Shown one piece after another: positions 13,095 to 61,110 of a stretch of DNA of 64,000 nt. Position numbers and translations under genes: made by a program. Positions within the stretch are counted from its first letter, which is position 1. Each line of letters opens with the position of its first letter. Where the stretch lies: NCBI RefSeq assembly GCF_988242995.1, contig NZ_OZ547043.1; one strand, written 5' to 3'. The notes under the pieces are model-generated. The model searched no databases. It saw only the letters and a list, made by a program, of their open reading frames with translations, and was not told the origin of the DNA.

Positions 13095-13862
13095 TTATAG
13101 CGCCAGAACCGCCGTATTCAGCGTTTCTATCGGTGCCGGGCGTGAAAGAAACCAGCCTTGTGCGGCGAATGCGGGCGAATTCTGAACATCACGCCACTCT
13201 TCCGGCGTTTCTACACCCTCGACGATCACCCCGCGACAATAGCGATTCATGAGATGTAAAAGCTGAGAAAAGAGTGTGCGTCCTTCCGGCGACTGACGCA
13301 GCATCATAAACAGTTCTCGCGCGATTTTGATGTAGTCATAACGCACTTCACTTAGCGCAGAGAAATTTGCCATCCCGGTGCCAAAATCATCCAGCCACAG
13401 CGGGCCAAATTCACACATCGAGGCAAAGGTTGAATCTTTCGGCAGACGGATATGCTCCACCAGTTCGAAACGCAGCCAGGGAAGACGCTCAATCTGGCGC
13501 AGGATTTTTGGTTGCTGACGCAGGGCGATGAGCGTAGGTCCATCAATATTGACCGATGCCAGCAGGCCGTGCTCTATAAAGAAGTCGGCTTTTTGCGCCA
13601 GCAAATCAATCTGCTCTTTCACAACCTCCATCCGATGGCTGACGGTGATTTCAGTAAAATAGCGATCCGGCGGCAGGCGTTGCGAAGGGTTCAAGGGATG
13701 CGTGACCACCGTTAATAGCTCCACGGCCATTAACCGTCCGCATGTTTGATAGATCGGCTGCCAGGTGTAAGCACGCTCACACTGCAACCAAAAACGCCGT
13801 TCCTGCAAGCTCTCGATGCTTGCTTCAGGGTTGCTTATTCGCTGGATAACCTGCCTTATCAT
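13095..13862 (-). CDS. pdeH: c-di-GMP phosphodiesterase (EAL domain only), 255 aa
   Basis: Track ORF 13095..13907; conserved start MIRQVIQRISNPEASIESLQERRFWLQCERAY at codon 16; EAL-domain protein (yhjH). Confidence 0.93.
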   Translation of the reverse strand: MIRQVIQRISNPEASIESLQERRFWLQCERAYTWQPIYQTCGRLMAVELLTVVTHPLNPSQRLPPDRYFTEITVSHRMEVVKEQIDLLAQKADFFIEHGLLASVNIDGPTLIALRQQPKILRQIERLPWLRFELVEHIRLPKDSTFASMCEFGPLWLDDFGTGMANFSALSEVRYDYIKIARELFMMLRQSPEGRTLFSQLLHLMNRYCRGVIVEGVETPEEWRDVQNSPAFAAQGWFLSRPAPIETLNTAVLAL

Positions 13863-14093: not shown

Positions 14094-15023
14094 ATGTCCA
14101 AAAAGATTGCCGTGATTGGCGAATGCATGATTGAGCTTTCCGAGAAAGGCGCGGACGTTAAGCGCGGTTTCGGCGGCGATACCCTGAACACTTCCGTCTA
14201 TATCGCCCGTCAGGTCGATCCTGCGGCATTAACCGTTCATTACGTAACGGCGCTGGGAACGGACAGTTTTAGCCAGCAGATGCTGGACGCCTGGCACGGC
14301 GAGAACGTTGATACTTCCCTGACCCAACGGATGGAAAACCGTCTGCCGGGCCTTTACTACATTGAAACCGACAGCACCGGCGAACGTACGTTCTACTACT
14401 GGCGTAACGAAGCCGCCGCCAAATTCTGGCTGGAGAGCGAGCAGTCTGCGGCGATTTGCGAAGAGCTGGCGAATTTCGATTATCTCTACCTGAGCGGGAT
14501 TAGCCTGGCGATCTTAAGCCCGACCAGCCGCGAGAAACTGCTTTCTTTGTTGCGCGAATGCCGCGCCAACGGCGGAAAAGTAATTTTCGACAATAACTAT
14601 CGTCCGCGCCTGTGGGCCAGCAAAGAAGAGACACAGCAGGTGTACCAGCAAATGCTGGAATGCACGGATATCGCCTTCCTGACGCTGGACGATGAAGACG
14701 CTCTGTGGGGTCAACAGCCGGTGGAAGACGTCATTGCACGTACCCATAACGCGGGCGTGAAAGAAGTGGTGGTGAAACGCGGGGCGGATTCTTGCCTGGT
14801 GTCCATTGCTGGCGAAGGGTTAGTGGATGTTCCGGCGGTGAAACTGCCGAAAGAAAAAGTGATCGATACCACCGCAGCTGGCGACTCTTTCAGTGCCGGT
14901 TATCTGGCGGTACGTTTGACGGGCGGCAGTGCGGAAAATGCGGCGAAACGCGGGCACCTGACCGCAAGTACCGTTATTCAGTATCGCGGCGCGATTATCC
15001 CGCGTGAGGCGATGCCGGCGTAA
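14094..15023 (+). CDS. kdgK: 2-dehydro-3-deoxygluconokinase, 309 aa
   Basis: Track ORF 13746..15023 (425 aa) has a long spurious N-terminal extension overlapping pdeH; the conserved start MSKKIAVIGECMIELSEKG (ATG at 14094) was used. PfkB-family sugar kinase. Confidence 0.93.
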   Translation: MSKKIAVIGECMIELSEKGADVKRGFGGDTLNTSVYIARQVDPAALTVHYVTALGTDSFSQQMLDAWHGENVDTSLTQRMENRLPGLYYIETDSTGERTFYYWRNEAAAKFWLESEQSAAICEELANFDYLYLSGISLAILSPTSREKLLSLLRECRANGGKVIFDNNYRPRLWASKEETQQVYQQMLECTDIAFLTLDDEDALWGQQPVEDVIARTHNAGVKEVVVKRGADSCLVSIAGEGLVDVPAVKLPKEKVIDTTAAGDSFSAGYLAVRLTGGSAENAAKRGHLTASTVIQYRGAIIPREAMPA

Positions 15024-18303: not shown

Positions 18304-20292
18304 CTACTTTTCTTCCAGGTAACTCTCTTCGAAGATTTCAATAGGGAGTGGGCGAGCAAAAAGGAAGCCCTGGGCAATACCAACGCCCGCTTTTGCCAGC
18401 CAGTCGCGTTGTGCTTCAGTCTCCACCCCTTCGGCAATCATTTGTAAGTTCAGGCTCTGCGCCAGCATGATAATTGCAGCAATCATGCTGCTATCTTCCG
18501 GCAAGCCTTCAACAAACATTTTGTCGATTTTCAGTACGTCGATTGGCAACGATTTCATATGCTGCAGCTGACGCAGCCCTGCGTAGCCCATGCCGAAATC
18601 ATCCAGCGCCACCCGAACTCCGGCATTGCGCAGCGGACGGAGGATTGCCACCGCAGCATGAGGGTCGTCAATACGTCGGCTTTCTGTCACTTCCAGAATC
18701 AGTGTTCCCGGCTGAATGCGATAGCGGGTTAACAGTTCCAGCATATCCGCCACCATATTTGGGTGCATCAGTTGCAGCGCTGAGAGGTTTACCGACAAGG
18801 GCAGCATAATGCCGCGCTCTTGCCAGGCAGCCAGCAATCGACAGGACTCTTCCAGCACCCAGTGACCAACGGTAACCATCAGCCCACAGCACTCAATGCG
18901 ATCGATTAAGCCATCCGGCAGATCCCAACTGCCATCCGGTTGCTGGATACGCAGTAACACTTCCGCACTGACCAGTTTACCGCTGTTCATCTCGACCTGT
19001 GGCTGTAACCAAATCGCAAACTGATGATTTTCCAGCGCATTAAGGATATCGCTCTCTTCCGTCAACCGCTGCTGGGCGGCTTCCATCTGCTGCGGATCAA
19101 AGAACTGAATCTGATTTTTGCCTTTATGGCGAGCGGTAAATGCCGCAGAAATAGCGCGACTGTAAAGCTGTTCGGCGGTGAGATCGCCGTAGAACATCGC
19201 CACGCCAATGCTACAGTGCGGACGGAGTTGAATACGTTCAATCGGCAGGCGCTCGCTCATGATAGTGAGCACTTGCTGACCCAAAGTGATTGCGTGCCAC
19301 GGTTCCTGTACACCGTTGGCAATGACAGCAAAGTCATAACCGCTAATCTGCGCGAGGATCATACGTGGCGACAGTACCGATTTGAGTTTTTCCACCAGCG
19401 TCAGCAGCAGAATTTCTCGTTGCGCCTCTTTCAGCACGCCCGCAGTATCACGCAGGGTTTCACAGGTGATAATCATCAGCGCGGTGGTTTGTTTACGCGC
19501 GACAACCTGCTCCAGCATCTCCATCAGCAAAGCTTTGTTCGGCAAATCCGACACCGGGAAGCGCATCGCGTTTTCGTTCTGTTCTTCATAATGGCGCTGC
19601 AGCAATTGCTGGTTGAGGTTGTAACTGCGCACCAGCATACCGATTTCATCATCCTGATGCAGACGCGGTAATGCCAGTTGGTGACCAACAAGCTCTTGGG
19701 CTGGGATGGCGTTTAGTTCGCGAGCAATATTGCGTAACGGATGCAAAATCAGGCGGTTAATGCACCAGCTAATCGCCACGGTCAATATTAACGACAAAAG
19801 TAAGTAAATGGTCACTAACGTTGAGAGGGTGCTCATCACGAACTTATACATACGGAAGGAATCCGCCTGTAGCACCAGATAGGCAATTGGCTGCGGATTT
19901 GCCGGACGTTCGAGCGAGTAGACGCCCAGCGAGATTTGCACCGGCAGCTCAAACAGGCGAGTAACCATTACCGGCACTGGCCGCTCTGGAATAAAACTTT
20001 TACGCAGCGCCTGGAACTGGTTAGGCAGCACTACATCGGCACGGCTGACCACGCCTGCCGGTTTAATGCTGGCAAGAATAGCTTCCGCTTCGGGAATATC
20101 GCCTTTCAAAATAGCTGAAGATAAGGGTTCGCGGACAGAGCGAGCAATGCTTTCCAGTTGCGTAGCCGTGTTATAGCGATTCTGCTGGACCAGATGGAAC
20201 AGCAAAACGGTGCAAAAAATAAAAACGAACACCAGGACAACGGCTGCCACCATTGCCATCTGCTTGATTGTTAACGAGCGACTTACGCGCAA
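18304..20292 (-). CDS. pdeK: Membrane-bound c-di-GMP phosphodiesterase (degenerate GGDEF + EAL), 662 aa in the longest frame
   Basis: Track [35 protein letters not shown]...; N-terminal TM segment, C-terminal EAL domain (yhjK). An in-frame Met 11-13 codons downstream is an alternative start. Confidence 0.9.
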
Positions 20293-20373: not shown

Positions 20374-23300
20374 TTACCAGTCGGCGTAAGGTATCAGCGG
20401 CTGCGGCGGTAAATCCATGTCACCCTGCCATCCGGCGGCGGAATAACGTACGTAGAGCAGGAAATGGCTGGGTGCGTAATCTTTTGCCTGCTGGATATCA
20501 ATTGCCGTGCCGACAAACCAGTTGGAAGTAACACGTCGTTCAAGTAATGCCCGCGCCGTGTAGCCAAAGCCCTGACTGCTGCCGCCATCGTTGGATTGCC
20601 GCGCAGCCTCTTCCTGCCAGTCGGTCGGGATCAGATTCATCAGCGGATAACGCGGCATGGTTTTGGTGCGTGAATGCGACCACGAGCCAGACGCCCCCAG
20701 CTCCCACGACCAGTTTTCCGTCCGCTCCCGCCACATCACCGGTATGGCAAACGACAGGTATTCCTGCGGGCTGTAGTAACCGCCCTGACCGAGTGAGTAG
20801 CCACTCAGGTCTTTGTCGTAATGCCAGATCATGTTGTTCAGGCCGATGGTGACGCGGCGATTGTTCTGGTTAATGACCTTATAGTAATAGCCCGTCATCC
20901 AGCGCACGCGCCAGTTATCTTCGACATTTTTACCGGTTAACTGGTCGCCACTAAGCGATGCCCAGACGCCGTTTGCTTCACCTTTATCGTAGCTCAGGCT
21001 TAGTCCCACGCCGTCGGCACGCACGCCGCCCCATTTTTTCCCGGTATTGCTCGGGGAGTCTTTTTGCCCGCCAAAGGCCAGCAAAGAACTGGAGATGGGC
21101 CGACGGTGGGCGTTAACGGTGTAACCCAGCGGCCCGATATCATCGCTGTAACTGATGCCGCCGACCACATCCACCACGTTGAAGCCCATCGGCGTGGTGC
21201 CGATATCCCAGCTCCAGACGTCATTTCGCCAGCCGACCGCCACGCTGGCACCGGAATCCGACTGGCTGCGGTTGCCGCTACAGTCCTGTAATGTACAGGT
21301 GCCCCAGTTGTCATCCCATTTACCATCGGCATTAGTGGAGAAACTGCCGACGTTCATATTGACGAAATCACTGCGAAAGAACATCCGCCCGTCAGAATAC
21401 GGCGCATCCACCTGCAACATAGTGGTGTGCGCTTTCAGATCGGAGTAACCACCGGTGCCGCTCGATCCCCAATAATCGTGCTCAAGGGTGACGTTAAGAT
21501 CCTGCTGGCGATAGAGGTCCGCCGCATCGCTGCGCACGCCGCGTTTCAGCCAGTCATCTTTCTCGTCATTGCGGGTCAGTCGGGTAAAGGTGTCGTTATC
21601 CTGTGGACGCATCGTGGTCACACCGGATGCAACCATGGCGTCTTTGTAGGTTTCCAGCGCCTGCGTTGGATCGCCCGCCTGCGCTTCAAACTTCGCACCG
21701 TCGCGCAGCACCATCGCACTTTCCATCGACGGCGGCTGAGATTTTGCCAGCGGGATCAACTGATTAAATGTCTGCTGCGCCGCTGCGGTATCGCCAAGCT
21801 GCGCCTGTGCCAGCGCCACGCGCCGCTGAGTGTTCAGCGAGGCGTTATTGGTGGCAGGCAGCTTCGCCAGCTGGCTACGTGCCGCCGCTTTGTCACCGGC
21901 AGCAATATCCACTTCCGTCAGACCAAGAATGGCATCGGCGTTAGTTGGCTCCCGCGTCAGGACATTCTGATATGCAGCGCGAGCGGCGGTGTAATCACGT
22001 CGCTGTTGCGCCCAGTCAGCCAGCGTGAGGTCTATGCGCGTGGAAGGTGGTTGCTGGCGCAGCATCGCTTCCGCTTCAGCTTCTTTGCCGCTTTCTCGCA
22101 GGCGATTAGCGGTTTCCAACACCTGATCGCTTTGCAGTCGATTAACCAGCTCCTGAATATTGCTGCTCCACTGCGCGCGCGGCAGGCTGTTGATATGCGC
22201 CAGCGCCGCTCTGTCCTGGTCATGACCAGAGAGATACAGCCCGTAAGCGTAAACCTGCTCCGGGTCGTTCGGCTTCTGCTGCGCCAGATTACGCATTAAC
22301 GTATCGGCCTGGCTACGTTGTCCGGCCTGCCAGAGATCCTGCGAAAGTCGGTAAGTAATCCATACGCTGCCGGGATCCAGCGCCAGTCGTTGCCGCTGAA
22401 GTGCTGCCGCCTGCGCCCATTTGCCCTGGTTTTCCAGTGCCTCTGCCTGCTGTGCCAGACGGTCGTTTTGTAGGCTGCGTTCGATATCATCAATGCTACG
22501 CCGCTGACTGGCAGAGAGCGAGGCGATAAACGCTTCAGCTTTTTCTGGCGATTGCTGGCGGTATATATTTGCCAGCCCGCGCACGGCGTTAGTGTTGCTA
22601 CTGTCCATACGCAGGGTCTGCTGGTAATAGCGTTCAGCGGCGGGATAATCTTTGCGCGCCATCGCCACATCGCCCAGCCCCAGCACTGCATAGCTGTCGG
22701 TGTTATCGACATTACGCGCCTGCTGGAACAGGCGTTCTGCCCGGTCAGGATTATTGGCTTTCAGCGCAGCATCGCCCTGCTGGATCGCCAGCCAGTAGCG
22801 GTTTACTTTCAGGAGACTGTTCCATTTGTCGTTGTTGCTGCTGTGCGGATCCAGGGCGAGGGCTTTTTCCAGATTCGCCACCGCATTAGCGCGATCGCCT
22901 TTCTGAGAATACGCCTGGCCCAGCGCCCCCAGAGCCTCACTGTCTTTCGGGTTCGCCCGCACCGCCTGTTGTAGTTCGGGAATGGCTTTACCCGCCATAC
23001 CAGAGTCCACCGCCGCTAAACCTTGCGCGCGAGCGCGGAAAGCAGGGTCGGCCAGCTGTTTTTGCTGTTCTGCCAGTTGCGATTGCGCCGCAGCTACGCT
23101 ATCGCCATCACTAAAGATCGAGAGATATTTTTTCAGCGCCGACACACTGGCATCGCTGACGGGCATGTCTTTAATCTGCCCGTACCAGATTTTAGAGGCC
23201 CCTTCGCGCCCGGCGTTTGATTTCGCCATCTGTTCCAGGACGGCAAAACCTTCGTCACGGCGATCGCTACTAAACAGCAATAGCGCCAGATTGTTTTGCA

Positions 23301-23847
23301 GGCCCGTATTGCCCGGCGTATCCGCATTAATGCGTTTTAGCTGATTAATCGCTTCGCCACGGCGAGCCGGAATTTTCGCCACCGTACTCCAGTACTCGAC
23401 GGCAATGTCACCTTCCGGCGGCGCACCGTTGAACAGTTTGTTGTAACTCGCCACAGCTTCTTCTGCATGACCAGTAGTCGCCTGCAATCTTGCCTGTTGC
23501 AGTGCCTGACGACCATCCGGCGTGGAAAGCAACATTGTGGTCCGCGACGATTTATACGCATTTGAACTCGGCGCTAACTGCGACAGCCGATCGAGCTGTT
23601 TTTGCGCGCCATCAATATCGCCCTGACGTAACAGAGAACGGAAACGGGCGGCAACGACTTCCGGGTTATTCGGATCAATAAGTTCCAGACGATACAACGA
23701 CTGTTGCACCAGGTCTTCACGATGGGTCGCTTCGCCTAACCGAACTTGCTCCAGCAACTGTTGCTGAGCGGTTGGTGCTGCCTCGACCATCGGCATGACG
23801 GCCAGACCGAGAGAAAGCGTGAATATGTTTAGTGTGAATTTGCGCAT
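20374..23847 (-). CDS. bcsC: Cellulose synthase outer-membrane subunit BcsC (TPR repeats + beta-barrel), 1157 aa
   Basis: Track [43 protein letters not shown]...; expected length; last gene of bcsQABZC. Confidence 0.95.
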
Positions 23848-24935
23848 TCCTGGCCCCAGTCAGGTAATAACTCACCTTTTGTCGAGAAGCGGAAACGGTG
23901 TTGATCCCAGCCTTGTCCAAACAGGGTCAGCACATAGTTGTAATAGGCATCGCTGCCGGGAAAGTTATCGGCCACGCGCTGGCGCTGAACGGCCTGCGCA
24001 TCGCGGTTTTGTAAAAAGGGCAGCATGGCGGCAGAAAAACCGACCGGTCCTTTACCCTGCGCTTTCCCCGTAGCCACATCCACTTTTTCTGGCGGATAGC
24101 CGTTTTTCTCGGTGAATGTCGCCATCGGTTTAAACCGGTTGAGCATCCGCGCTTTTTGCGGATCGCTGTCAGGCATCATGCCTACCCACATGTAAACGCG
24201 GATCGCGTCGTAGCTGCTGATCAATGTTTTTTCGGCTTTTAGCTGCCAGCCTTTGTCTTTCTCATAGCGCACCCAGTCTGGCGAAAAGCCTTTCGGGGCG
24301 GTTTCCAGCAATAAACGTTGATTGGTTTCGCGCAGCGTAGTCCACGGCGCGCCAAAGCGGGTGAAATACTGCGCCAGCGTCGGCGGCAGGTAGCTGGGGT
24401 TAAAACGCCAGCTGTTATCCTCAGCAAAACCCACTTTGCCCGGTAACAACATGGAACCCAGCCCAGGCACCGTCACCACTTCCTCCCGCGCGATACGTTT
24501 TAACAACGCGCTGCCGATGTCGGTATAACGCTGCTCTTTCCACAAACGCCCCGCCTCCAGCAACGACCAGGCCATCCAGACATCACCATCGGAGGCCGAA
24601 TTGCTGTCCAGCACTTCCCACTTACTGTTCTCTTTCTTGCCCCACAGCCAGGCAGGCAAACGTTCTTTTAAAGAACCCTGAGCGAGATTGTTCTGCGTCC
24701 AGTCGAGAATATTATCGAAAGCTGCACGGTCGTTAGCCGCCAGGGCAAAGAACATGCCGTAACTTTGTCCTTCGGAGGTGGTGATTTTGCGCGCGTCGCT
24801 GGGGTCGATGACGCGCCCTTCCTGACTGATGTAATCCTTTTTAAACTGCTCCCAGGCAGGCCAGGTACAGGCTGCCTGAACACTAAAGGCAGCCAGCAGC
24901 AGCATCGTCACGAGTCCACTACGCAACACATTCAT
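23829..24935 (-). CDS. bcsZ: Endo-1,4-beta-glucanase BcsZ (GH8), 368 aa
   Basis: Track ORF 23829..24941; start taken at [21 protein letters not shown] (signal peptide). The 3' end overlaps the bcsC start by 19 bp. Confidence 0.93.
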
Positions 24936-24941
24936 CTTCAA

Positions 24942-27281
24942 TTACTCGTTATCCGGGTTAAGACGACGACGGCTGATAATACGCAGCAGACGCCACAGTA
25001 CCCATGCCAGCAGCACGACGCTGATTGCCGCCAGCACCGCCAGCAGAATCGGATGGTTTGCCAGCGCATACCATAAGCGTTCGAACCACGGCAGATGGCC
25101 AACGTAATAGACGTCGCCAACGCGTAGGCTATTGATACCGGACTCGCGGATCACCGCGACCGAACCGAACATGGTGGCGCGTTTGCCGCTATCGTTCACC
25201 GCATCGTTAAGCATTTCATAACCGCGTGGGCTATCTGCCAGCAGCGCAATCACGCTGCGCTGGTCGTTATACGGCGACTGGAAGCCAATCACCGCCGCCA
25301 TCGCACCGGAAGAGGTCAGCGTTGACTGGGTTTCTGCCGCGCGATCGCTCTCGTCCGGAACAATGCCGGGGAACGGGGTCTGGCGCATCGGCGTTTTCAC
25401 CCAGCTTTCGGTCGCCTGCACCAACAGGTCGATCTGCTTGTCGTCTTTCAGTTTGTCCGGGATACCACCGATGATCATGATGTCGGCATCTTTGCCCTGA
25501 ATGGTGCTGCCATCATCGGTCACCGTCAGATTAATCGCCGGGAAGCCCGCCTGTGCGCCGATAAAACCAACAGTATTCAGCAAGGTTTCCATCTGTGCTT
25601 CGTTAGGCGTTTTCGGCATCACGGTGATGGTTTGCGACAGATCCGCCATCCGGCTGAACGGGAAGCCCGCGTTAGCAAAGGCGCGTAGATCCGGCATCGG
25701 GATGAAGTGGTAATACTTCGAGAAGTCGATGGTGGAGTCGTCACCAATCACCACATGATTCTGCACCGGCTGGAAGGTAATACAGTTATCCACCGAACCG
25801 CCAGGCATCGGGTTCATATACTCAAAGTCAAAGCGCAGCTGGTTGGTCGCGCCCAGTTTCAGCGCCGGAATAGAGACATCCGTTTTGCCATCCAGCAAAC
25901 CTTGTAATACCGGAATCCGCAGCAGCAGGCGGTTCGCCTCCTGTTTGCTGCTCAGATTGAATGATTGCAGGAACTGGTTATTCAGGCTGATATCCATCCG
26001 CGAACTGTCTTTCACCGGCGGCATGGTGTAGCGGTAATTAATATCCATATCAATGCCGGTACTGCGCATCAGGTAGAGATCTGGCGGCAGGTTTAGCGAA
26101 ACATTAATCGCTGCTGGCTCAAGACCGCTGGATTGCAACTGTTCTTCATAGGTTTTCAGTTCACCAAAGGTGACCGGACGATCGGTACGCACCCAGTTCG
26201 GCGCATCGTACGGCTTACGCGGTAGCAGCGGTTTCACTTCATTCACTACCACGCTTTCACCACGGAACAGAATGTTACCCTGAGCGATACCTTTCGCTGC
26301 CTGCAACAGGTCTTTGTCGTCACGACCAAACACCACCAGCAGTTTGACGTAAGGATTCTGCGGATGGTTGATCATCTCAATCACCGGGGCTTTTACCGCC
26401 GGATGATCGCGCAGGAAATCCGGGCGTTTGTCATTGGTGGCAAAAACGATGGCATTGCGATCCGGCAATTGGTTATAGAGCACCGGGAAGTTCTGCCCAC
26501 GCCAGCCAGAACGCGAACCAAACCACGAGGCGACAATGGCAGATGCTTGTTGCAGCCCGACATCCGGCGCACCCGCAAAGACAATCGGCAAGGTGTTAGT
26601 ACGGTTATCACGCGGGTCAAAGAATGGTACCGGGAAGTGTGACAGGTCATTCTTCACATTCAGGGTCTGATAGGTCAAATCCAGTCCACTGCTCCGCCCA
26701 ACATCCAGCCAAAGCGTGGTGCTGGCCGGGTTTTCGCACACGTCCTGATAATGGCCGACAAACTCCAGCCGCACACGGTTGAAGTCGGTAATAAACAGTG
26801 GGTTAATGGGCATTTGCGCCAGCGTTTTTTTACCCAACTGTTCTTTGGTCACTGGCAGCACGCCCATCAGTTCATCATTGAGATAAACCTTTAACTGCGA
26901 CTGGACAGGCAGTAACGATGGCGATGGCGTGTATTCGAGGTTGAGCATCGCCTTCGTCACCACTTCATCGCTGCGCATACCAAACTCAATGCTGCCGTTC
27001 GGGTTAATGCCACGTAGCACCATGCTGCCCGGCGGCGGCGCAATTTGCGCAAAGGTCAGCTTCACATCACGCGAAGGACCGTTCTGCGCCACGATAGGGG
27101 CATCAGCGCCCTGCACGCCCGGCATCACTTGCCCAACCTGCGGATTTTGTTCCGTCTGGGCGGCTACAGCTGGCTCAGCATTGATCAGTGGTTGCGTTGC
27201 TGGCGTCGCCTGCGTCATGAAAGAGGGGAACGCACTCATCCCCATAGCCACTGCACAAATCCAGAATAGTTTTCTTTTCAT
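24942..27281 (-). CDS. bcsB: Cellulose synthase periplasmic subunit BcsB, 779 aa
   Basis: Track ORF 24942..27368 (808 aa); conserved start MKRKLFWICAVAMGMSAFPSFMTQA at codon 30. Confidence 0.94.
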   Translation of the reverse strand: MKRKLFWICAVAMGMSAFPSFMTQATPATQPLINAEPAVAAQTEQNPQVGQVMPGVQGADAPIVAQNGPSRDVKLTFAQIAPPPGSMVLRGINPNGSIEFGMRSDEVVTKAMLNLEYTPSPSLLPVQSQLKVYLNDELMGVLPVTKEQLGKKTLAQMPINPLFITDFNRVRLEFVGHYQDVCENPASTTLWLDVGRSSGLDLTYQTLNVKNDLSHFPVPFFDPRDNRTNTLPIVFAGAPDVGLQQASAIVASWFGSRSGWRGQNFPVLYNQLPDRNAIVFATNDKRPDFLRDHPAVKAPVIEMINHPQNPYVKLLVVFGRDDKDLLQAAKGIAQGNILFRGESVVVNEVKPLLPRKPYDAPNWVRTDRPVTFGELKTYEEQLQSSGLEPAAINVSLNLPPDLYLMRSTGIDMDINYRYTMPPVKDSSRMDISLNNQFLQSFNLSSKQEANRLLLRIPVLQGLLDGKTDVSIPALKLGATNQLRFDFEYMNPMPGGSVDNCITFQPVQNHVVIGDDSTIDFSKYYHFIPMPDLRAFANAGFPFSRMADLSQTITVMPKTPNEAQMETLLNTVGFIGAQAGFPAINLTVTDDGSTIQGKDADIMIIGGIPDKLKDDKQIDLLVQATESWVKTPMRQTPFPGIVPDESDRAAETQSTLTSSGAMAAVIGFQSPYNDQRSVIALLADSPRGYEMLNDAVNDSGKRATMFGSVAVIRESGINSLRVGDVYYVGHLPWFERLWYALANHPILLAVLAAISVVLLAWVLWRLLRIISRRRLNPDNE

Positions 27282-27291
27282 CGCGTTATCA

Positions 27292-29910
27292 TCATTGTTG
27301 AGCCAAAGCCTGATCCGATGGTTGTGCCGTTTCGCTCCGCGCCGGGCGGCGCGGAATAAACGATACAACCCAGGAAACCAGAGAAGTCAGCACACGGAAT
27401 ATGCCCTTCACCGAAGAAGGCGCAAACTCCGCCAGATGGCGGTAGCCACGGAAGCCGAGCTTCAGAATATCCAGCAGACTTTCCAGCGGCTTATCTTCCG
27501 GATAGCTGTCCTGCCAGAGCGCCCATGTATCCGCACGGGCAAACGTACACTGCACAAAATCGATATGTTGCTGGGTGGTGAGCGGCATTAATTTCAGCCC
27601 AACTTCATTACCCATCACGCGCGCCACCTGGGTGGGGAAGACGTATTCCTGCTGACCGCGTTTAAGCAACAGATTCACTTTCTGCCCTTCCAGAATCTGC
27701 GCCTGACCGTTGATCTTGATCCCCAAACCACCGTCGGAGAAATCCTGAACGGTACATGAGAAGAGGTGACCATCTTCGCGGGCAATTGCCGCGGGCATCG
27801 TCATCTCCACGCGGTGCGATCGGCGTACCTGTTTGCTTTCTACCGATACCGCAACTGCGCCGCCAAGAACAATCAGGTTGTAGAATACCCACACCATACT
27901 GACGACCACGGTGAGCATCTCGGTTGGCGGGCCATAGAAGTAGCGCCAGATGCCTACCGCAACGCCCACCAGGTTGAGCAGAACAAGGAAGATGTAGGGC
28001 CGCGAGATCACCCAGTCGACGTACTCTTCTTCCACCAGTCCACCTTTGGCGGTAACGTTAAATTTGCCTTTGTGCGGGTTAATCAGCGCCACCAGCGTCG
28101 GTGGTGCGATATACCACGCCAGCACCGTTTCGTAGATTTCACTCCAGAAAGAGTGGCGATATTTGCCCTGGATCTTGGAGTTGGTCAGGCTGGCATGGAT
28201 CATATGCGGCAGCACGAACAGGGCAATCATCAACGCTGGCGCATAGATGATGTAGGCATGAAGCAGCAGGAACGCCAGCGGCGCAGTCAGGAAGATCAGC
28301 CGTGGAATGCCCGACAAGAAGTGGAACATGGCGTTGACGTAACATAGCCGCTGAGCAAACTTCAGCCCTTTACCGGTGAGCGGGTTATCGAGACGAAAGA
28401 TTTGCACCATCCCGCGCGCCCAGCGAATACGCTGACCAATATGCGCCGACAGACTTTCGGTCGCCAGCCCCGCCGCCTGCGGAATACGCATATATGCAGA
28501 GGTGTAGCCACGACGGTGCAGGCGCAAAGAGGTATGCGCATCTTCAGTCACAGTTTCGACAGCAATGCCGCCAATTTCATCCAGCGGCTTACGGCGAATC
28601 ACCGCACAGGAACCGCAGAAGAAAGTGGCGTCCCACATATCGTTGCCATCCTGCACCAGACCATAGAACAGCGTGCCTTCGTTCGGTGTTTTACGAAATC
28701 GCCCCAGGTTGCGTTCAAACGGGTCCGGTGAGAAGAAGTGGTGCGGCGTCTGCATCATCGCCAGCTGTTTTTCTTTCAGGAACCAGCCCATGGTCATTTG
28801 CAGGAACGATCGCGTTGGTACGTGGTCGCAGTCGAAAATCGACACGAACTCGCCTTTGGCATATTTCAGCGCATTGTTGATGTTGCCCGCTTTCGCATGT
28901 TCATGAGTGGTGCGGGCGATATATTTCACCCCCACGTTTTGCGCAAACTGGCGAAACTCTTCCCTGCCGCCGTCATCGAGGATCCAGATGTTCAGTTTGT
29001 CTTTCGGCCAGTCGATACCCAGCGAGGCGTAAATGGTATTTTTCACCACGTTGAGATCTTCGTTGTAAGTCGGGACAAAGATATCCACCGACGGCCACAG
29101 CGACATATCTTTCGGCAATGGCACCGGCTGACGATTCAGCGGCCATACTACCTGGAAGTAGCCGAGCACGAGCACAATCCACGCGTACGTTTCAGCGAAC
29201 AGCAGAATAAGCCCGCACACCAGGCTGACCGGATCGTCCCAGTTCAGCGTAGAGGTGTAGCGCCACCAGATATAACGGCAAGAAACGGTCAGCGACAGCA
29301 CAATCAACATTAGCGCCGAGAAGCGCCCCGGCATCCGCCGTACGATCAGCGCTACACCCCACAGCAGCATCAGGAAGATAAACTGCGCCAGCGGGTTAAA
29401 CGGCTGGGTAACGCAGATTAACGCCAGAATCAGCGAGAAGGTGACGATGATACCGAGGATCAACCGCCGCGCCCCGGCGCTCAAATGACCGAGCTCTTTT
29501 TTCTCATCGAGATGCTGTGTTTTATGGCTAACGCGCTCAGGCAGCTCGTTCATCCATTGATGGTAACGTCCACGAATATTCTGCAGACCTGAAAATGTCC
29601 GCCTGTGCGGTTTCGGCGTTTCTTTGCGCGATGTACCGATCAGTAACCAGCATGTTTGAATGAGATAACGGACCGGGTCCAGCGGACGCGGACGCGAGGC
29701 GTTGATATGCGGATACAGGTTTTTATGTTCTGCGCGAATACGCTGCCAGCGCGGGTGCTCCAGCGGAATAAAAATCCAGGCCAGGATCAACCAAAAACAG
29801 CCGAGCGTCGCGCTGAAAGCCGACGCGCCGTGACGACGATAATCGCGATAACGCCCGATAAGCCGCGCGTTGACCGGCGGGATAAGCAACCACCGGGTCA
29901 GGATACTCAT
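27292..29910 (-). CDS. bcsA: Cellulose synthase catalytic subunit BcsA (GT2 + PilZ), 872 aa
   Basis: Track ORF MSILTRWLLIPPVNARLIGRYRDYRRHGASAF...; QxxRW-type glycosyltransferase with C-terminal PilZ domain. Confidence 0.96.
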   Translation of the reverse strand: MSILTRWLLIPPVNARLIGRYRDYRRHGASAFSATLGCFWLILAWIFIPLEHPRWQRIRAEHKNLYPHINASRPRPLDPVRYLIQTCWLLIGTSRKETPKPHRRTFSGLQNIRGRYHQWMNELPERVSHKTQHLDEKKELGHLSAGARRLILGIIVTFSLILALICVTQPFNPLAQFIFLMLLWGVALIVRRMPGRFSALMLIVLSLTVSCRYIWWRYTSTLNWDDPVSLVCGLILLFAETYAWIVLVLGYFQVVWPLNRQPVPLPKDMSLWPSVDIFVPTYNEDLNVVKNTIYASLGIDWPKDKLNIWILDDGGREEFRQFAQNVGVKYIARTTHEHAKAGNINNALKYAKGEFVSIFDCDHVPTRSFLQMTMGWFLKEKQLAMMQTPHHFFSPDPFERNLGRFRKTPNEGTLFYGLVQDGNDMWDATFFCGSCAVIRRKPLDEIGGIAVETVTEDAHTSLRLHRRGYTSAYMRIPQAAGLATESLSAHIGQRIRWARGMVQIFRLDNPLTGKGLKFAQRLCYVNAMFHFLSGIPRLIFLTAPLAFLLLHAYIIYAPALMIALFVLPHMIHASLTNSKIQGKYRHSFWSEIYETVLAWYIAPPTLVALINPHKGKFNVTAKGGLVEEEYVDWVISRPYIFLVLLNLVGVAVGIWRYFYGPPTEMLTVVVSMVWVFYNLIVLGGAVAVSVESKQVRRSHRVEMTMPAAIAREDGHLFSCTVQDFSDGGLGIKINGQAQILEGQKVNLLLKRGQQEYVFPTQVARVMGNEVGLKLMPLTTQQHIDFVQCTFARADTWALWQDSYPEDKPLESLLDILKLGFRGYRHLAEFAPSSVKGIFRVLTSLVSWVVSFIPRRPARSETAQPSDQALAQQ

Positions 29911-30659
29911 GATTTACTCCCGACTGGCGTTTTCAGCCCGGAATAGTTCAACAGGCACCAGTTAGCCAGCGTCAGTATCTCTTCAGCCGCCAGCGCATCA
30001 CTGCGATATTCACCGACTGGTTGCTTAGCCGCCAGGCATTCAGCCATCGCTTCATCACGATGAATGAGCATCGGCAGTAATCGGCGCTGGCTTTGCAACC
30101 AAAGCTGGTAAATATCGTCCTGAACTTGACTGCCGATACGGAAGTCATTAATCAAAATATGCGCGCCATCCGGCAGCGCCTGCTGATGCAGCCGGATATG
30201 GCAGTTGGCATCCACATTGACGATTGCCAGCGAGTGATCGCACAAACTCAGCAGCTGGTGGGTTATCTGCGAGGAATCACGCGGTAAGTCGATTAAAATC
30301 CAATGGTAACGCCCGCTGGCTTTTAGTTGCTGTAAGCCGGAGCAAATATCGCTCAGCCGGGTTTGCCAGTGCTGTGGATTTTCTTGTTCTTCAATGGATA
30401 ACTGACCAAAAGGCAGCAAATCGAGTTGCGAGGTATAGCGCAACCCAGCGTCACGCCAGTCCTGGCCATCCAGCATAGCTCTGGCCCAGCCCTGACGGTG
30501 GGTAAAATCAACGTTAAATGACAGGCGCAACAAGTTGTCCGGGCAGGCATCGACCACCAGGACATTTTCTCCCAACATTTGTAATGACCAGGCTAATGCG
30601 GCGGTGATGGTTGTTGTCCCCACGCCTCCCCGCACCCCCTGCAATCCCAGTACGGCCAT
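29907..30659 (-). CDS. bcsQ: Cellulose biosynthesis protein BcsQ (MinD/ParA-like ATPase), 250 aa, apparently intact
   Basis: Track ORF MAVLGLQGVRGGVGTTTITAALAWSLQ... is open for 250 codons with Walker-A-like GGVGTTT; overlaps the bcsA start by 4 bp. Confidence 0.9.
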   Translation of the reverse strand: MAVLGLQGVRGGVGTTTITAALAWSLQMLGENVLVVDACPDNLLRLSFNVDFTHRQGWARAMLDGQDWRDAGLRYTSQLDLLPFGQLSIEEQENPQHWQTRLSDICSGLQQLKASGRYHWILIDLPRDSSQITHQLLSLCDHSLAIVNVDANCHIRLHQQALPDGAHILINDFRIGSQVQDDIYQLWLQSQRRLLPMLIHRDEAMAECLAAKQPVGEYRSDALAAEEILTLANWCLLNYSGLKTPVGSKS

Positions 30660-30670
30660 TCACCAATCCC

Positions 30671-30859
30671 CTACTTTTGTTGCGCAAACTCTGCCAGCAA
30701 CGGCCAGCGTTTTAATGCCGCGGCCAACTGTTCGCGTTGGGAAATATCGGCATAATCAATATCAGGCAGTGAAAATGCCTGCTTTAACGCCAAAATATCA
30801 TTCTGGAAGATATAGCCTATCGCGGGATCAGGCAGAGTATCTGGTTCATTGTTATTCAT
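30671..30859 (-). CDS. bcsR: Cellulose biosynthesis protein BcsR, 62 aa
   Basis: Track ORF 30671..30901 starts at a non-ATG codon; the conserved protein starts MNNNEPDTLPDPAIGYIFQNDILALKQAF (codon 15). Confidence 0.85.
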   Translation of the reverse strand: MNNNEPDTLPDPAIGYIFQNDILALKQAFSLPDIDYADISQREQLAAALKRWPLLAEFAQQK

Positions 30860-31130
30860 TTGCTTGATCCCTATGAAATAACCGTACCGTTCATGAGACA
30901 ATTCTAACCGTGAGCATTTCGCCGGTTTATTGTTTACGGCGAGACGGGAATTTGCTCACTTTTTGACTTTCCGTTACGCAACAAAAAAAGTTAAAAACGA
31001 AAAGACTAAAATCACACGTCTTGTGACCTGCTAAATTGATTCACATGCTAAATCTGATAAGTTTTAATTTCAATGGTAGGTTTATTTCTTAGCTTTCGCT
31101 AGTAAACTGATAATCAGACAAAATGATGAC

Positions 31131-32702
31131 ATGAGGGACATTGTGGACCCTGTATTCTCTATCGGTATCTCATCATTATGGGATGAGCTGCGACATATGC
31201 CAGCAGGCGGCGTCTGGTGGTTTAACGTCGATCGCCATGAAGATGCTATCAGTCTGGCGAATCAAACAATTGCATCCCAGGCTGAAACCGCACACGTCGC
31301 GGTCATTAGCATGGACAGCGATCCGGCGAAAATCTTTCAATTAGATGATTCTCAAGGGCCGGAAAAAATAAAATTATTTTCAATGCTAAATCATGAAAAA
31401 GGTCTATACTATTTGGCCCGTGATTTGCAGTGTTCTATTGATCCCCATAATTACCTTTTTATTCTTGTTTGCGCAAATAACGCATGGCAAAACATTCCTG
31501 CCGAGCGGCTTCGCTCATGGTTGGATAAAATGAATAAATGGAGCAGGTTAAACCATTGTTCGCTTTTGGTAATTAATCCCGGAAATAATAACGATAAACA
31601 ATTTTCATTGTTGCTTGAGGAATACCGTTCACTTTTTGGTCTTGCCAGTTTGCGTTTTCAGGGCGACCAACATTTGCTGGATATTGCCTTCTGGTGCAAC
31701 GAAAAAGGGGTCAGCGCCCGTCAGCAGCTTAGCGTTCAGCAACAAAAGGGTATCTGGACCTTAGTTCAAAGCGAAGAGGCGGAGATCCAACCACGCAGCG
31801 ACGAAAAACGCATTCTGAGTAATGTTGCTGTACTGGAAGGTGCGCCGCCGCTATCAGAACACTGGCAACTGTTCAACAATAACGAAGTCCTGTTCAATGA
31901 AGCCCGTACCGCTCAGGCGGCGACGGTGGTCTTTTCTTTACAACAAAATGCGCAAATCGAGCCACTGGCCCGCAGCATTCATACTCTGCGTCGCCAGCGC
32001 GGTAGTGCGATGAAAATCCTCGTACGGGAAAATACCGCTAGCCTGCGCGCCACCGATGAACGTTTGTTATTGGCCTGCGGTGCAAATATGGTTATCCCAT
32101 GGAATGCCCCACTCTCCCGCTGTCTGACGATGATCGAAAGCGTGCAAGGGCAGAAGTTTAGTCGCTATGTGCCGGAAGATATCACTACCTTGCTGTCAAT
32201 GACCCAGCCGCTCAAACTGCGTGGTTTCCAGAAGTGGGATGTGTTCTGTAATGCCGTCAACAACATGATGAATAACCCTCTATTACCTGCCCACGGTAAA
32301 GGCGTTCTGGTTGCCCTACGTCCGGTACCGGGTATCCGCGTTGAGCAAGCCCTGACGCTGTGTCGCCCTAACCGCACCGGCGATATCATGACTATTGGCG
32401 GTAATCGGCTGGTGCTGTTTCTCTCATTCTGTCGGATTAACGATCTGGATACCGCGTTGAATCATATTTTCCCATTGCCGACTGGCGACATTTTCTCAAA
32501 CCGTATGGTCTGGTTTGAAGATGATCAAATCAGTGCCGAGCTGGTGCAGATGCGCCTGCTTGCCCCAGAACAATGGGGCATGCCGCTGCCTTTAACGCAA
32601 AGTTCTAAACCGGTCATCAATGCCGAGCACGATGGTCGCCACTGGCGACGAATACCAGAACCAATGCGACTGTTAGATGATGCTGTGGAGCGCTCATCAT
32701 GA
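31131..32702 (+). CDS. bcsE: c-di-GMP-binding cellulose biosynthesis protein BcsE (GIL domain), 523 aa
   Basis: Track [42 protein letters not shown]...; divergent from bcsR. Confidence 0.94.
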
Positions 32703-32890
32703 TGACCATCAGCGATATCATTGAAATTATTGTCGTTTGCGCACTGATATTTTTCCCGCTGGGCTATCTGGCGCGGCACTCTTTGCGACGCATTCGCGAC
32801 ACCTTACGTTTGTTCTTTGCTAAACCTCGTTATGTTAAACCGGCCGGGACGTTACGCCGCACGGAAAAAGCCAGGGCAACCAAAAAATGA
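32699..32890 (+). CDS. bcsF: Small membrane protein BcsF, 63 aa
   Basis: Track [36 protein letters not shown]...; 4-bp overlaps with bcsE and bcsG (translational coupling). Confidence 0.88.
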
Positions 32891-34566
32891 CTCAATTTAC
32901 GCAAAATACCGCCATGCCTTCTTCCCTCTGGCAATACTGGCGCGGTCTTTCCGGCTGGAACTTCTATTTTCTGGTTAAGTTCGGCCTGTTGTGGGCGGGA
33001 TATCTTAACTTCCATCCGCTCCTCAATCTGGTGTTTGCCGCGTTTCTGCTGATGCCCATTCCGCGCTACAGCCTGCATCGCTTACGCCACTGGATTGCCC
33101 TGCCGATCGGCTTTGCTTTGTTCTGGCATGACACCTGGTTGCCTGGCCCGGAAAGCATAATGAGCCAGGGTTCGCAGGTGGCGGGGTTCAGTACCGATTA
33201 TTTAATCGACCTTGTCACACGCTTTATTAACTGGCAGATGATTGGGGCCATTTTTGTTTTATTAGTGGCCTGGTTATTCCTGTCACAATGGATTCGCATT
33301 ACCGTTTTTGTGGTTGCCATTCTGCTATGGCTGAACGTACTTACCCTGGCGGGACCAAGTTTCTCCTTGTGGCCAGCCGGTCAACCGACGACCACTGTAA
33401 CAACGACGGGTGGTAACGCAGCGGCAACCGTTGCGGCGACGGGTGGCGCACCGGTAGTGGGTGATATGCCCGCACAAACTGCACCGCCAACAACGGCGAA
33501 TCTTAACGCCTGGCTGAATAATTTCTATAACGCGGAGGCGAAACGTAAATCGACCTTCCCGTCTTCGCTGCCCGCTGATGCTCAGCCATTTGAACTACTG
33601 GTGATTAATATCTGTTCGCTTTCCTGGTCGGATATTGAAGCCGCCGGGTTGATGTCGCATCCGCTGTGGTCGCATTTCGATATTGAGTTCAAGAACTTTA
33701 ACTCCGCCACCTCCTACAGTGGCCCGGCGGCGATCCGTTTACTGCGCGCCAGCTGCGGGCAGACTTCGCACACTAATCTGTATCAACCGGCAAATAACGA
33801 CTGCTATCTGTTTGATAACCTGTCGAAACTGGGCTTTACCCAGCACCTGATGATGGGACATAACGGCCAGTTCGGCGGTTTTTTGAAAGAAGTTCGCGAA
33901 AATGGCGGCATGCAGAGCGAATTGATGGATCAAACAAATCTGCCGGTTATTTTGCTGGGCTTTGATGGTTCGCCGGTTTATGACGATACCGCCGTGCTTA
34001 ACCGCTGGCTGGACGTTACCGAAAAAGATAAAAACAGCCGTAGTGCCACGTTCTACAACACGCTTCCACTGCATGACGGCAACCATTATCCGGGCGTCAG
34101 CAAAACAGCGGATTACAAAGCGCGAGCGCAGAAATTCTTTGATGAGCTGGACGCCTTCTTTACTGAACTGGAGAAATCGGGTCGTAAAGTGATGGTGGTC
34201 GTGGTGCCGGAACACGGTGGCGCGCTGAAGGGCGACAGAATGCAGGTATCTGGCCTACGTGATATCCCTAGCCCGTCTATCACAGACGTCCCCGTTGGGG
34301 TGAAATTCTTCGGCATGAAGGCACCACATCAGGGGGCACCGATTGTCATCGACCAACCGAGCAGCTTCCTGGCTATCTCCGATCTGGTGGTTCGCGTTCT
34401 TGATGGCAAGATTTTCTCCGAAGACAATGTTGACTGGAAAAAACTCACCAGTGGGTTACCACAAACAGCACCGGTCTCCGAGAACTCAAATGCAGTAGTT
34501 ATTCAATACCAGGATAAACCGTACGTTCGCCTGAACGGCGGCGACTGGGTGCCTTACCCGCAATAA
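32887..34566 (+). CDS. bcsG: Cellulose phosphoethanolamine transferase BcsG, 559 aa
   Basis: Track [43 protein letters not shown]...; membrane N-terminus plus periplasmic alkaline-phosphatase-like domain. Confidence 0.94.
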
Positions 34567-34652
34567 GAACGAAAAAGGCCGCAGAGTTTCACCCCTGCGG
34601 CCTGGTCCGGGCGCAAATTGCCATTACGGCAGCCTGACGCCCGCATGACACG

Positions 34653-34760
34653 TTACTTCCGCTTATTCAGCGAGTTCACGATCAGACTGGCAAGAATGCC
34701 AGCAATGATCGGAGCCGCTAAATCATGCCAGAAGGCCATGCCCAGCTCTGCGAGCGTCAT
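34653..34760 (-). CDS. Ldr-family type I toxin, 35 aa (copy 1, divergent)
   Basis: Last 35 codons of track ORF 34653..34895: MTLAELGMAFWHDLAAPIIAGILASLIVNSLNKRK. ATG (cat on plus strand) at 34758-34760. Confidence 0.8.
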   Translation of the reverse strand: MTLAELGMAFWHDLAAPIIAGILASLIVNSLNKRK

Positions 34761-34808
34761 ATAGCCGCCTGTGTTGTAATGACAACGTTTCGCGGCTATT
34801 CTTGTATT

Positions 34809-34874
34809 GTTTGGATGCAAGAATGGCCCCCGTGGTGTTGTCAGGTGCATACCTGCAACGTGCGGGGGTTTTCT
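34809..34874 (+). ncRNA. Rdl-family antisense RNA (copy 1); coordinates approximate
   Basis: Plus-strand hairpin cccccgtggtgttgtcaggtgcatacctgcaacgtgcggggg followed by ttttctct, antisense to the ldr leader. Its 5' part differs from copy 2. Confidence 0.5.
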
Positions 34875-35135
34875 CTCTCCAGCAACCAATGCCACCAGGG
34901 ATTAAGCCCCCGCAACATTGCGCCTCACCGGAACCCTTCCGGCTTGACGCTGATTCTACGACTGTTTTTCTGTTCCGGAATCCATCACGTCTTCACTCTG
35001 TGCTGCGCATTCCGCAGAATATTATCCGCTTGCAACCGTTGCATTTTTCTTACGAAAAAGGCCGCAGAGTTTCACCCCTGCGGCCTGATCCGGGCGCAAA
35101 TTGCCATTACGGCAGCCTGACGCCCGCATGACACG

Positions 35136-35243
35136 TTACTTCCGCTTGTTCAGCCAGTTCATGATCATACTGGCAAGAATGCCAGCAATGACCGGAGCCG
35201 CTAAATCATGCCAGAAGGCCATGCCCAGTTCTGCGAGCGTCAT
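35136..35243 (-). CDS. ldrD: Ldr-family type I toxin, 35 aa (copy 2, LdrD-like)
   Basis: Last 35 codons of track ORF 35136..35378: MTLAELGMAFWHDLAAPVIAGILASMIMNWLNKRK. ATG at 35241-35243. Confidence 0.8.
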   Translation of the reverse strand: MTLAELGMAFWHDLAAPVIAGILASMIMNWLNKRK

Positions 35244-35291
35244 ATAGCCGCCTCTGTTGTAATGACAACGTTTCGCGGCTATTCTTGAGTG

Positions 35292-35357
35292 GTCTAGAGT
35301 CAAGATTAGCCCCCGTGGTGTTGTCAGGTGCATACCTGCAACGTGCGGGGGTTTTCT
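35292..35357 (+). ncRNA. rdlD: RdlD-like antisense RNA (copy 2); coordinates approximate
   Basis: ggtctagagtcaagattagcccccgtggtgttgtcaggtgcatacctgcaacgtgcgggggttttct: hairpin plus U-run, antisense to the ldr leader. Resembles RdlD as I recall it. Confidence 0.55.
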
Positions 35358-35718
35358 CTCTCCAGCGACCAATGCCACCAGGGATTAAGCCCCCGCAACA
35401 TTGCGCCTCACCGGAACCTTTCCGGCTTGCCGCTGATTCTACGACTGTTTTTTACCGTCAGCACCCGGCAATCTTCCTCATTGCGTGATGCCTTCCAGCT
35501 TAATTTCTTTATTTGCATTAGTTGCAGTTCATATCCGGGCTGACTCCAGACTGGTAGTGAAATGCGCAATTTTGTAGAATTGCGCCTCCTCGCGACCTCC
35601 CCAGTGAATCTGTTGCCTCATTTTTTACATACTGCGTATTCGACTTCTCCACCTGTTGCGCAAGAGAAACTGGGTTTATTCATTTTTGCGAGGCCGACTT
35701 CTTTCTGGACAGGACTTT

Positions 35719-42704: not shown

Positions 42705-43467
42705 TATTCTGCTCCAATTGTGATGTTTGTTGTTTTAACCCTTTGCAGTGGGTTGTCGCTGCCTGACCTTTTTTGTTTTTTGCCCGGTCGGGTCAACGTT
42801 ATGAGGTGGGGATGCCGTACTAATTAACATCAGTGTAACAGTGCGGATCCTCCATAAAATGCCCCTCGTGACCTACAATCTGTCAACAGAATGTGAAAAC
42901 GTCAATACAGCCAACCGGGATTTACACCAACGGTGAGAATCCACAAACAAAGATTAAAAAAACTTCAAACAGCTATTTGCAGCAGAGAAATTTGTGCTAC
43001 TCCAACATGACCAGAACAATCAGCTTAATATTTAGCAACAATTGGTGATTAAGTTTTATGCATTTAGTGAAAAAAATCTGAGGAAAAGGTGGATATCTGA
43101 GCGATTAATACCATGAACGCTAAAACGCACAGGGGAAAATGCCAGCGCCAGCCATAAGTAACGCAAAAAAAGATTTAAGCAAATATAAAAAAAGACAATG
43201 GTTTCTGTCACAAATCCGTTAATGGATAGTGAGATATGGGGCGCAAATTTGGCAGGGAAATATGTGGTGTGTTGCCGTTTAGATCGGATAAGACGGATAC
43301 GCTGTATCCCACAATGAGTGCGGTGCCGAATTTGGTCGGTGCCAGAGGATTACTCGCCACTTCGTGGCTCGCCCTGCGGGCCGTTGCTGGCGCAACGTTC
43401 TCTCGCTTCGCTCGAGTCGAACCTCCCTGCCCCCGGAGGTTCTCATCCTCTTCAGGCCGCAGAAAGC

Positions 43468-43501: not shown

Positions 43502-43578
<77 letters not shown>

Positions 43579-55334: not shown

Positions 55335-55487
55335 TTACTCTTTCAAATTGCAGGCTAAAAATGCCGCCAGCTCATAACTCCCCTGTTTAATATGCAATTC
55401 ACACAGTGAATCTCTTATCATCCAGGTGAAAAATAAAAGCGTGAAACAAATCACTATTAAAGAAAGTAATCTATATTTCTGCGGCAT
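55335..55487 (-). CDS. hokA: Hok-family type I toxin HokA, 50 aa
   Basis: Track ORF 55335..55547 (70 aa); the last 50 codons MPQKYRLLSLIVICFTLLFFTWMIRDSLCELHIKQGSYELAAFLACNLKE are the Hok toxin. The in-frame upstream extension probably covers the mok/leader region. Confidence 0.85.
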   Translation of the reverse strand: MPQKYRLLSLIVICFTLLFFTWMIRDSLCELHIKQGSYELAAFLACNLKE

Positions 55488-55766
55488 TCCCAGCCCCCTA
55501 TGTTGATTTCCAACGAGTAAGAGGCTAACCTTATGGTGTTCAGGCATAGGGTAGCCTCACTTTGATTTATAGTCAGGTGGGGCTTTTCTCTGTCTGCCTT
55601 TCGGTGAATACCTGAGACAAACAGTCTCAAGCACCCGCAGCTATTCTAGCTTAATAAGTTCGTTTCTTCTCCTTGATATAATCCTAAAAAAATCTCATAA
55701 AATTAATATATGAGACAATCTTTATTCAGCAGAAGATTATTAAAGGTTGCTCTATTATTTAGCGAT

Positions 55767-60372: not shown

Positions 60373-60380
60373 ATAAATAT

Positions 60381-60405
60381 CCTCCGGCATAGCCGGAGGT
60401 TTTTC
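60381..60405 (+). terminator. wecH intrinsic terminator
   Basis: cctccggcatagccggagg followed by ttttt. Confidence 0.7.
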
Positions 60406-61110
60406 AAATGCGCCTATAAGGCTCTCTTACCAGCCGCGCCCTAACAGGCGCACACGATCTGACATTTGCATCCAACTTCGTTACTTACGGCCCGTAAACG
60501 GGCTGCCCGGATAGGGAATCGATAACTGCTCTCCCATTTTATCCTCTTCAAGCTGGTGCTTTATGTAATCCTGTATCTTCGCCGTGTTCTTACCCACTGT
60601 ATCGACGTAGTACCCTCTGCACCAGAACTCCCTGTTCCTGTATTTGAATTTCAAATCACCAAACTGCTCGTAAAGCATCAGACTGCTTTTCCCTTTCAGA
60701 TATCCCATAAAGCCGGATACGCTCATTTTGGGCGGGATCTCCACAAGCATATGGATATAATCTGCACAGCATTCAGCTTCCAGAATCCGTACGCTTTTCC
60801 ACTCACACAGCTTTCTCAAAATACTGCCTATTGCTCTACGCTTCTCTCTGTAGAACACCTGTCTTCGGTATTTTGGCGCAAAAACTATGTGATATTTACA
60901 GTTCCATCGGGTGTGCGCTAAGCTCTTTTCGTTCCCCATTGGGACCCCCTTTTGATTTCTTGTTTGACACTTGCAGTTGCCAGACCGCAAAGTGTTTTAA
61001 CAAATCAAAAGGGGTTTTAATAACTGGCTCAAAGCTGAAAGCTTTCCGGAACCCCCAGCCTAGCTGGGGGTTTTCTGTGCACAATAAAGGCCCGGTCACA
61101 TTGGACTGAC
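60405..61110 (-). mobile_element. IS200-like insertion sequence (IS200/IS605 family); boundaries approximate within about 30 bp
   Basis: Single Y1 (HuH) transposase gene with about 75 bp after the stop and about 170 bp before the start. The upstream end carries the characteristic perfect hairpin acccccagcctagctgggggtt. Total about 0.7 kb, as expected for IS200; no terminal inverted repeats, consistent with the family. Confidence 0.8.
60481..60939 (-). CDS. tnpA: IS200-family transposase TnpA (Y1 HuH transposase), 152 aa
   Basis: Track ORF 60481..60990; conserved start MGNEKSLAHTRWNCKYHIVFAPKYRRQVFY; HuH motif (HMLVEI) and catalytic Tyr region (RGYYVDTVG) present. Confidence 0.92.
   Translation of the reverse strand: MGNEKSLAHTRWNCKYHIVFAPKYRRQVFYREKRRAIGSILRKLCEWKSVRILEAECCADYIHMLVEIPPKMSVSGFMGYLKGKSSLMLYEQFGDLKFKYRNREFWCRGYYVDTVGKNTAKIQDYIKHQLEEDKMGEQLSIPYPGSPFTGRK

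Follow-up and report, generated by a model that had tools for sequence, protein, structure and literature searches.

An open bcsQ frame within an intact bcs cellulose cluster on an Escherichia coli contig distinct from K-12

The closest described relatives of the locus reported here are the type II bcsRQABZC-bcsEFG clusters for phosphoethanolamine-cellulose of Escherichia coli 1094 and AR3110, two strains for which cellulose production has been demonstrated. In this machinery, BcsA and BcsB polymerise the glucan upon binding of cyclic dimeric guanosine monophosphate (c-di-GMP) to the PilZ domain, BcsG adds phosphoethanolamine to the cellulose, and BcsQ, a MinD/ParA-type ATPase essential for cellulose secretion, forms a cytosolic module with BcsR and BcsE. 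The nonsense mutation in bcsQ of K-12 and the effect of its repair have been in print since 2013; Serra et al. 2013 is reportedly the primary paper for both. The lesion is a single-nucleotide polymorphism (SNP), 17T>A, which converts codon 6 from TTG to TAG and has been placed in the common ancestor of K-12 (PMC5944007). In AR3110, codon 6 of the W3110 gene has been restored from TAG to TTG, a change that by itself rendered the strain cellulose-proficient (PMC7397504, PMC5944007). Here we describe the bcs locus in a stretch of 64,000 nucleotides (hereafter the window) from contig NZ_OZ547043.1 of RefSeq assembly GCF_988242995.1, for which an earlier sequence-only reading had proposed an open bcsQ frame in a functional cluster and a strain other than K-12.

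In the window, bcsQ (29907–30659, minus strand) forms an uninterrupted frame of 250 codons and encodes the MinD/ParA-like (SIMIBI) ATPase subunit of the cellulose secretion machinery; the product given in the list of open reading frames (ORFs) of the minus strand starts MAVLGLQGVRGG. The gene lies between bcsR (30671–30859) and bcsA (27292–29910), all three on the minus strand. For comparison of the genes, the MG1655 region NC_000913.3, 3,680,000–3,700,000, was used as reference. The first seven codons read ATG GCC GTA CTG GGA TTG CAG in the window and ATG GCC GTA CTG GGA TAG CAG in MG1655, so that codon 6 (30642–30644, minus strand) is TTG (Leu) opposite TAG, and the SNP falls on nucleotide 17 of bcsQ at window position 30643. 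The NC_000913.3 annotation treats MG1655 bcsQ (b3534) as a pseudogene. The sequence-only reading, which had named the K-12 stop and asked for this alignment, was right on both counts: the ORF and the codon alignment agree on an open 250-residue frame with leucine at codon 6, and K-12 is not identical here but carries TAG, as its annotation and the literature also have it (PMC5944007, PMC7397504).

Besides the SNP in codon 6, bcsQ differs from MG1655 at 16 more nucleotides, and the protein differs from that of K-12 by three amino acids plus Leu6. BcsQ scored 541.2 bits against the NCBIfam equivalog NF007460 (cut-off 399), with residues 1–249 aligned to the 250-position model (family NF007460/TIGR03371; Pfam CBP_BcsQ). 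In a comparison with the E. coli BcsQ crystal structure (PDB 6ybu), only 3 of 250 residues differ (Q119H, A129S, N173D), and the P-loop GVRGGVGTT, at residues 8–16 near the N-terminus of the MinD/ParA-like fold, is the same in both. At least 1000 public contigs encode exactly this BcsQ.

The frequency of the two alleles was assessed with a 61-mer centred on the SNP, counting exact matches among 5426 complete E. coli genomes. The TTG version was present in 3551 genomes and the TAG version in 348–349, while the remaining matched genomes deviate elsewhere within the 61-mer. The TTG allele is thus the population norm. Carriers of TAG were listed as the 60 best-ranked records and as 60 records spread evenly over the 348; all of these were laboratory strains of K-12 or K-12-type recipients, with chromosomes of 4.46–4.79 Mb, including MG1655, W3110, DH5alpha, C600, J53, HB101, TG1 and MC4100. 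No codon-6 TAG outside the K-12 lineage occurred among the TAG matches listed in these two sets. BcsQ nonsense mutations have been mentioned for the sequence type (ST) 10 complex (PMC10881479). The open bcsQ frame is the default of the species and TTG is the ancestral state; the K-12 TAG is derived and specific to its lineage. What had been singled out as noteworthy in the window, the open frame, is therefore the ordinary condition, given the counts for the two 61-mers.

The nine bcs genes form two divergent operons, with each gene at full length. In a gene-by-gene comparison, every member of bcsRQABZC and bcsEFG matched K-12 in length, had regular start and stop codons and was free of internal stops, which upholds the earlier statement that the whole set is full length. 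All nine proteins scored above the curated NCBIfam cut-offs, essentially end to end apart from BcsR. Public collections already contain every one of these exact sequences, and six of the proteins each occur on at least 856 contigs. Over 5,633 codons, there are 38 amino acid differences from K-12, and the ratio of nonsynonymous to synonymous substitution rates (dN/dS; Nei-Gojobori, nine genes) is 0.046, a value that indicates purifying selection on the bcs genes.

On the minus strand, bcsR (yhjR; 30671–30859) has 62 codons and one amino acid difference from K-12 (V23L). BcsR gave one match to NF040717 (75.8 bits; cut-off 46), in which residues 20–61 cover the whole 42-position model, and the exact protein occurs on at least 1000 contigs. 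The catalytic cellulose synthase gene bcsA (27292–29910, minus strand; 872 codons) encodes a protein with a C-terminal PilZ domain and five amino acid differences from K-12, of which M41L, A93T, R102H and A105T cluster at the N-terminus. BcsA aligned with NF008558 over 1–872 of 872 positions (1790 bits) and matches the E. coli cryoEM chains PDB 9fmv/7lby over its full length. Of the GT2 motifs DDG, DxD, TED and QxxRW and the PilZ motifs RxxxR and D/NxSxxG, BcsA contains DDG312, DCD360, TED455 and QRIRW493 as well as the c-di-GMP motifs RRSHR696 and DFSDGG723. The periplasmic co-catalytic subunit is encoded by bcsB (24942–27281, minus strand; 779 codons; 10 amino acid differences from K-12), whose product matched NF008325 over its full length (1384 bits).

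Further along the same strand, bcsZ (23829–24935; 368 codons; two amino acid differences from K-12) encodes the periplasmic GH8 endoglucanase, which scored 595 bits against NF008305 and whose exact sequence recurs on at least 1000 contigs. The gene bcsC (20374–23847, minus strand; 1157 codons), for the TPR and outer-membrane channel subunit, has 11 amino acid differences from K-12 and is free of stops; BcsC aligned with NF008520 over 1–1157 of 1157 positions (2195 bits), and 90 contigs carry the exact protein. The plus-strand operon begins with bcsE (31131–32702; 523 codons; two amino acid differences from K-12), encoding a c-di-GMP-binding (GIL domain) regulator that aligned with NF011619 over 1–523 of 523 positions (1189 bits) and contains RTGD415. 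It is followed by bcsF (32699–32890, plus strand; 63 codons; TIGR03493, 116 bits), which is nucleotide-identical to K-12, and by bcsG (32887–34566, plus strand; 559 codons), the gene of the phosphoethanolamine transferase that modifies cellulose, with three amino acid differences from K-12 and a score of 819 bits against TIGR03368. Residues C243, S278, H396, E442 and H443 of BcsG, its nucleophile and metal ligands, and E55 and D243 of BcsZ, the catalytic acids (numbered as in published structures), are all present, and none of these catalytic residues is among the positions that differ from K-12.

The two operons are separated by the divergent bcsR-bcsE control region (30860–31130), which spans 271 nt in the window and 272 nt in K-12. 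It differs from K-12 by three SNPs and one 1-nt indel and is identical to the natural strain C4. The indel, at 30860, is one nucleotide that K-12 has and the window lacks; the deletion lies directly upstream of the bcsR ATG and alters the spacing between the bcsR ribosome-binding site and the start codon. Because strain C4 shares the deletion, the K-12 sequence may be the exceptional one at this site also. When compared with K-12 at a fixed offset, bcsE, bcsF and bcsG took on a scrambled look that resembled a frameshift; the cause is the intergenic 1-nt indel, and the genes are intact after correction of the offset. The search for a frameshift that might have been missed by eye in the bcs genes accordingly returned none, the sole indel being intergenic and outside the reading frames.

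Within the operons, the bcsQ stop and the bcsA start overlap as ATGA (29907–29910), as read directly in the sequence, and bcsE/bcsF and bcsF/bcsG overlap likewise. With leucine at codon 6, ribosomes would translate all of bcsQ and yield full-length BcsQ. Ribosomes reaching the bcsQ stop would then be placed to initiate bcsA by translational coupling via the ATGA overlap, so that the downstream bcsBZC would be expressible as well. In K-12, termination at codon 6 would remove BcsQ and leave about 735 nt untranslated before bcsA. A polar effect is one explanation that has been offered for the K-12 lesion (PMC5944007), and the untranslated stretch fits it. We consider this very probably an ordinary wild-type E. 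coli cellulose locus of a natural, non-K-12 strain; with bcsQ open and bcsA and bcsBZC expressible, the locus would be genetically competent for phosphoethanolamine-cellulose.

Could the open frame instead belong to a K-12 derivative with a repaired bcsQ? AR3110 carries exactly the TAG-to-TTG change, but an alignment of the whole window with MG1655 refutes such an origin, to which we attach a negligible probability. The window is collinear with MG1655 3,665,298–3,729,800, yet identity is only 97.2–98.4% per block, and bcsQ itself has the 16 further nucleotide differences. Three structural differences separate the window from K-12, namely an extra ldr/rdl copy, the lack of IS150 at hokA/sokA and an IS200-type insertion. 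Moreover, window positions 14942–37281 are identical (22,340 of 22,340 nt) to the non-K-12 draft contig DBJUBQ010000015.1 (GCA_052135105.1); the best complete RefSeq E. coli genome reaches 99.0% over 25 kb (window 18001–43000). The sequence-only reading had also held that the strain is not a standard K-12, and the nucleotide divergence of about 2%, the structural differences and the TTG codon all confirm this. An error of sequencing or assembly that masks a real stop as TTG is equally far-fetched: the same 61-mer occurs in 3551 independent complete genomes, and the draft assembly, itself independent, agrees with the window at every position over 22 kb.

Whether the strain makes cellulose is a separate matter. 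Cellulose synthesis requires an intact bcs cluster, but the cluster by itself does not suffice, because c-di-GMP derived from DgcC under CsgD/RpoS control is also needed and is encoded elsewhere. We infer that the Bcs proteins work and that the strain would make cellulose once DgcC supplies c-di-GMP under this control. Several points weigh against so favourable a view. The regulators CsgD, DgcC, RpoS and MlrA are encoded outside the window; the phenotype is not readable from sequence, and promoter activity of the 271-nt region is putative; and BL21 and H10407, which have complete bcs gene sets, gave no calcofluor signal (PMC5944007). The BcsB allele is rare besides, the exact protein (24942–27281) being found on one public contig only. 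Its substitutions V63I, M233I and T578A, all three conservative, were seen neither in K-12 nor in strain C4 nor in the nine cluster members that were sampled. It is therefore possible, although we think it rather unlikely, that the cluster is intact on paper and the strain cellulose-negative in a standard assay, through a regulatory defect (csgD promoter, rpoS, mlrA or dgcC) or through missense changes such as those in BcsB. The behaviour of BL21 and H10407 and the one-contig BcsB allele speak for this outcome, as does the wide variation of red, dry and rough (rdar)/cellulose expression among isolates through regulation (PMC5635171). Against it, all substitutions are conservative and outside known motifs, the dN/dS of 0.046 points to purifying selection that is still at work, and the c-di-GMP phosphodiesterases encoded in the window (PdeK and PdeH) are of ordinary, intact type and not obviously altered. 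Of the earlier claim that the strain is probably cellulose-proficient, the intact cluster stands, while the step to a phenotype exceeds the data of the window; cellulose proficiency is plausible but unproven. A measurable effect of the rare BcsB allele, or of the N-terminal cluster of BcsA substitutions, on cellulose synthase assembly or output appears very improbable; if it were true, an otherwise ordinary locus would encode a naturally occurring variant of the E. coli Bcs machinery that differs in function.

Of the two phosphodiesterase genes, pdeK (yhjK/hmsP; 18304–20292, minus strand; 662 codons) adjoins bcsC and is intact, with four amino acid differences from K-12. PdeK acts locally on cellulose synthase (PMC7397504). 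PdeH is encoded at 13095–13862 and is likewise intact.

Several features beyond the bcs cluster also distinguish the window from K-12. Two tandem copies of the ldr/rdl type I toxin-antitoxin system lie at 34570–35450, with Rdl antitoxin RNAs (RF01813) at 34809–34874 and 35292–35357 and Ldr toxin ORFs within 34653–34895 and 35136–35378 (both minus strand). As K-12 has one copy (ldrD/rdlD), the window two and strain C4 four, the copy number differs between strains. IS150 is not present in hokA/sokA, where the site is uninterrupted at window positions 55519–55559. The hokA/sokA locus, which is split by IS150 in K-12, is intact at 55485–55640, with sok (RF01794) at 55485–55636 (minus strand); because it is not split, this toxin-antitoxin module may still be functional. 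An IS200-family element of about 700 bp, missing from K-12, occupies 60378–61084 between wecH and yiaA. It contains a Y1 transposase ORF at 60481–60990 (minus strand; PF01797, E = 7e-37) and a leader that matches Rfam STnc490 at 60949–61072 (minus strand). In the dppA-proK interval, short indels or a repeat rearrangement relative to K-12 are seen, with alignment blocks that break at 43266/43327 and a repeat match of 86%; an RtT repeat RNA (RF00391; 43333–43467, minus strand) is located directly downstream of tRNA-Pro(CGG) (43502–43578, minus strand). Across window positions 14942–37281, the spread of differences from strain C4 is uneven and suggests a mosaic produced by recombination.

Set against the described systems, the finding is correct and already known: this is the wild-type state of a well-studied locus. 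Natural lineages with bcs loss of function (ST95, ST11, ST1193, Shigella and others; PMC10881479) carry a nonsense mutation or frameshift in at least one bcs gene, and the window has none. Strains of this kind occur in 74 of 76 common STs, and in 14 of the 76 they make up more than 80% of the strains (PMC10881479). Such mutations are common in particular clones, yet they are derived states. The value of the result lies in correct annotation and in the intact ancestral cellulose locus as a strain descriptor, which is useful because the loss of bcs function by mutation is a marker of several virulent clones. The K-12 locus (MG1655/W3110) is collinear in gene content, and its genes besides bcsQ equal those of the window in length; it differs in the TAG at codon 6, which makes bcsQ a pseudogene and the strain cellulose-negative, in a divergence of about 2%, and in a bcsR-bcsE interval that is 1 nt shorter in the window. 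From 1094 and AR3110, with their demonstrated cellulose production, the window departs in these genes by allelic polymorphism only (the 38 amino acid differences from K-12/AR3110 over nine proteins and the rare BcsB allele). The nine genes, their order and orientation and the Leu6-open bcsQ are those of the 1094/AR3110 cluster.

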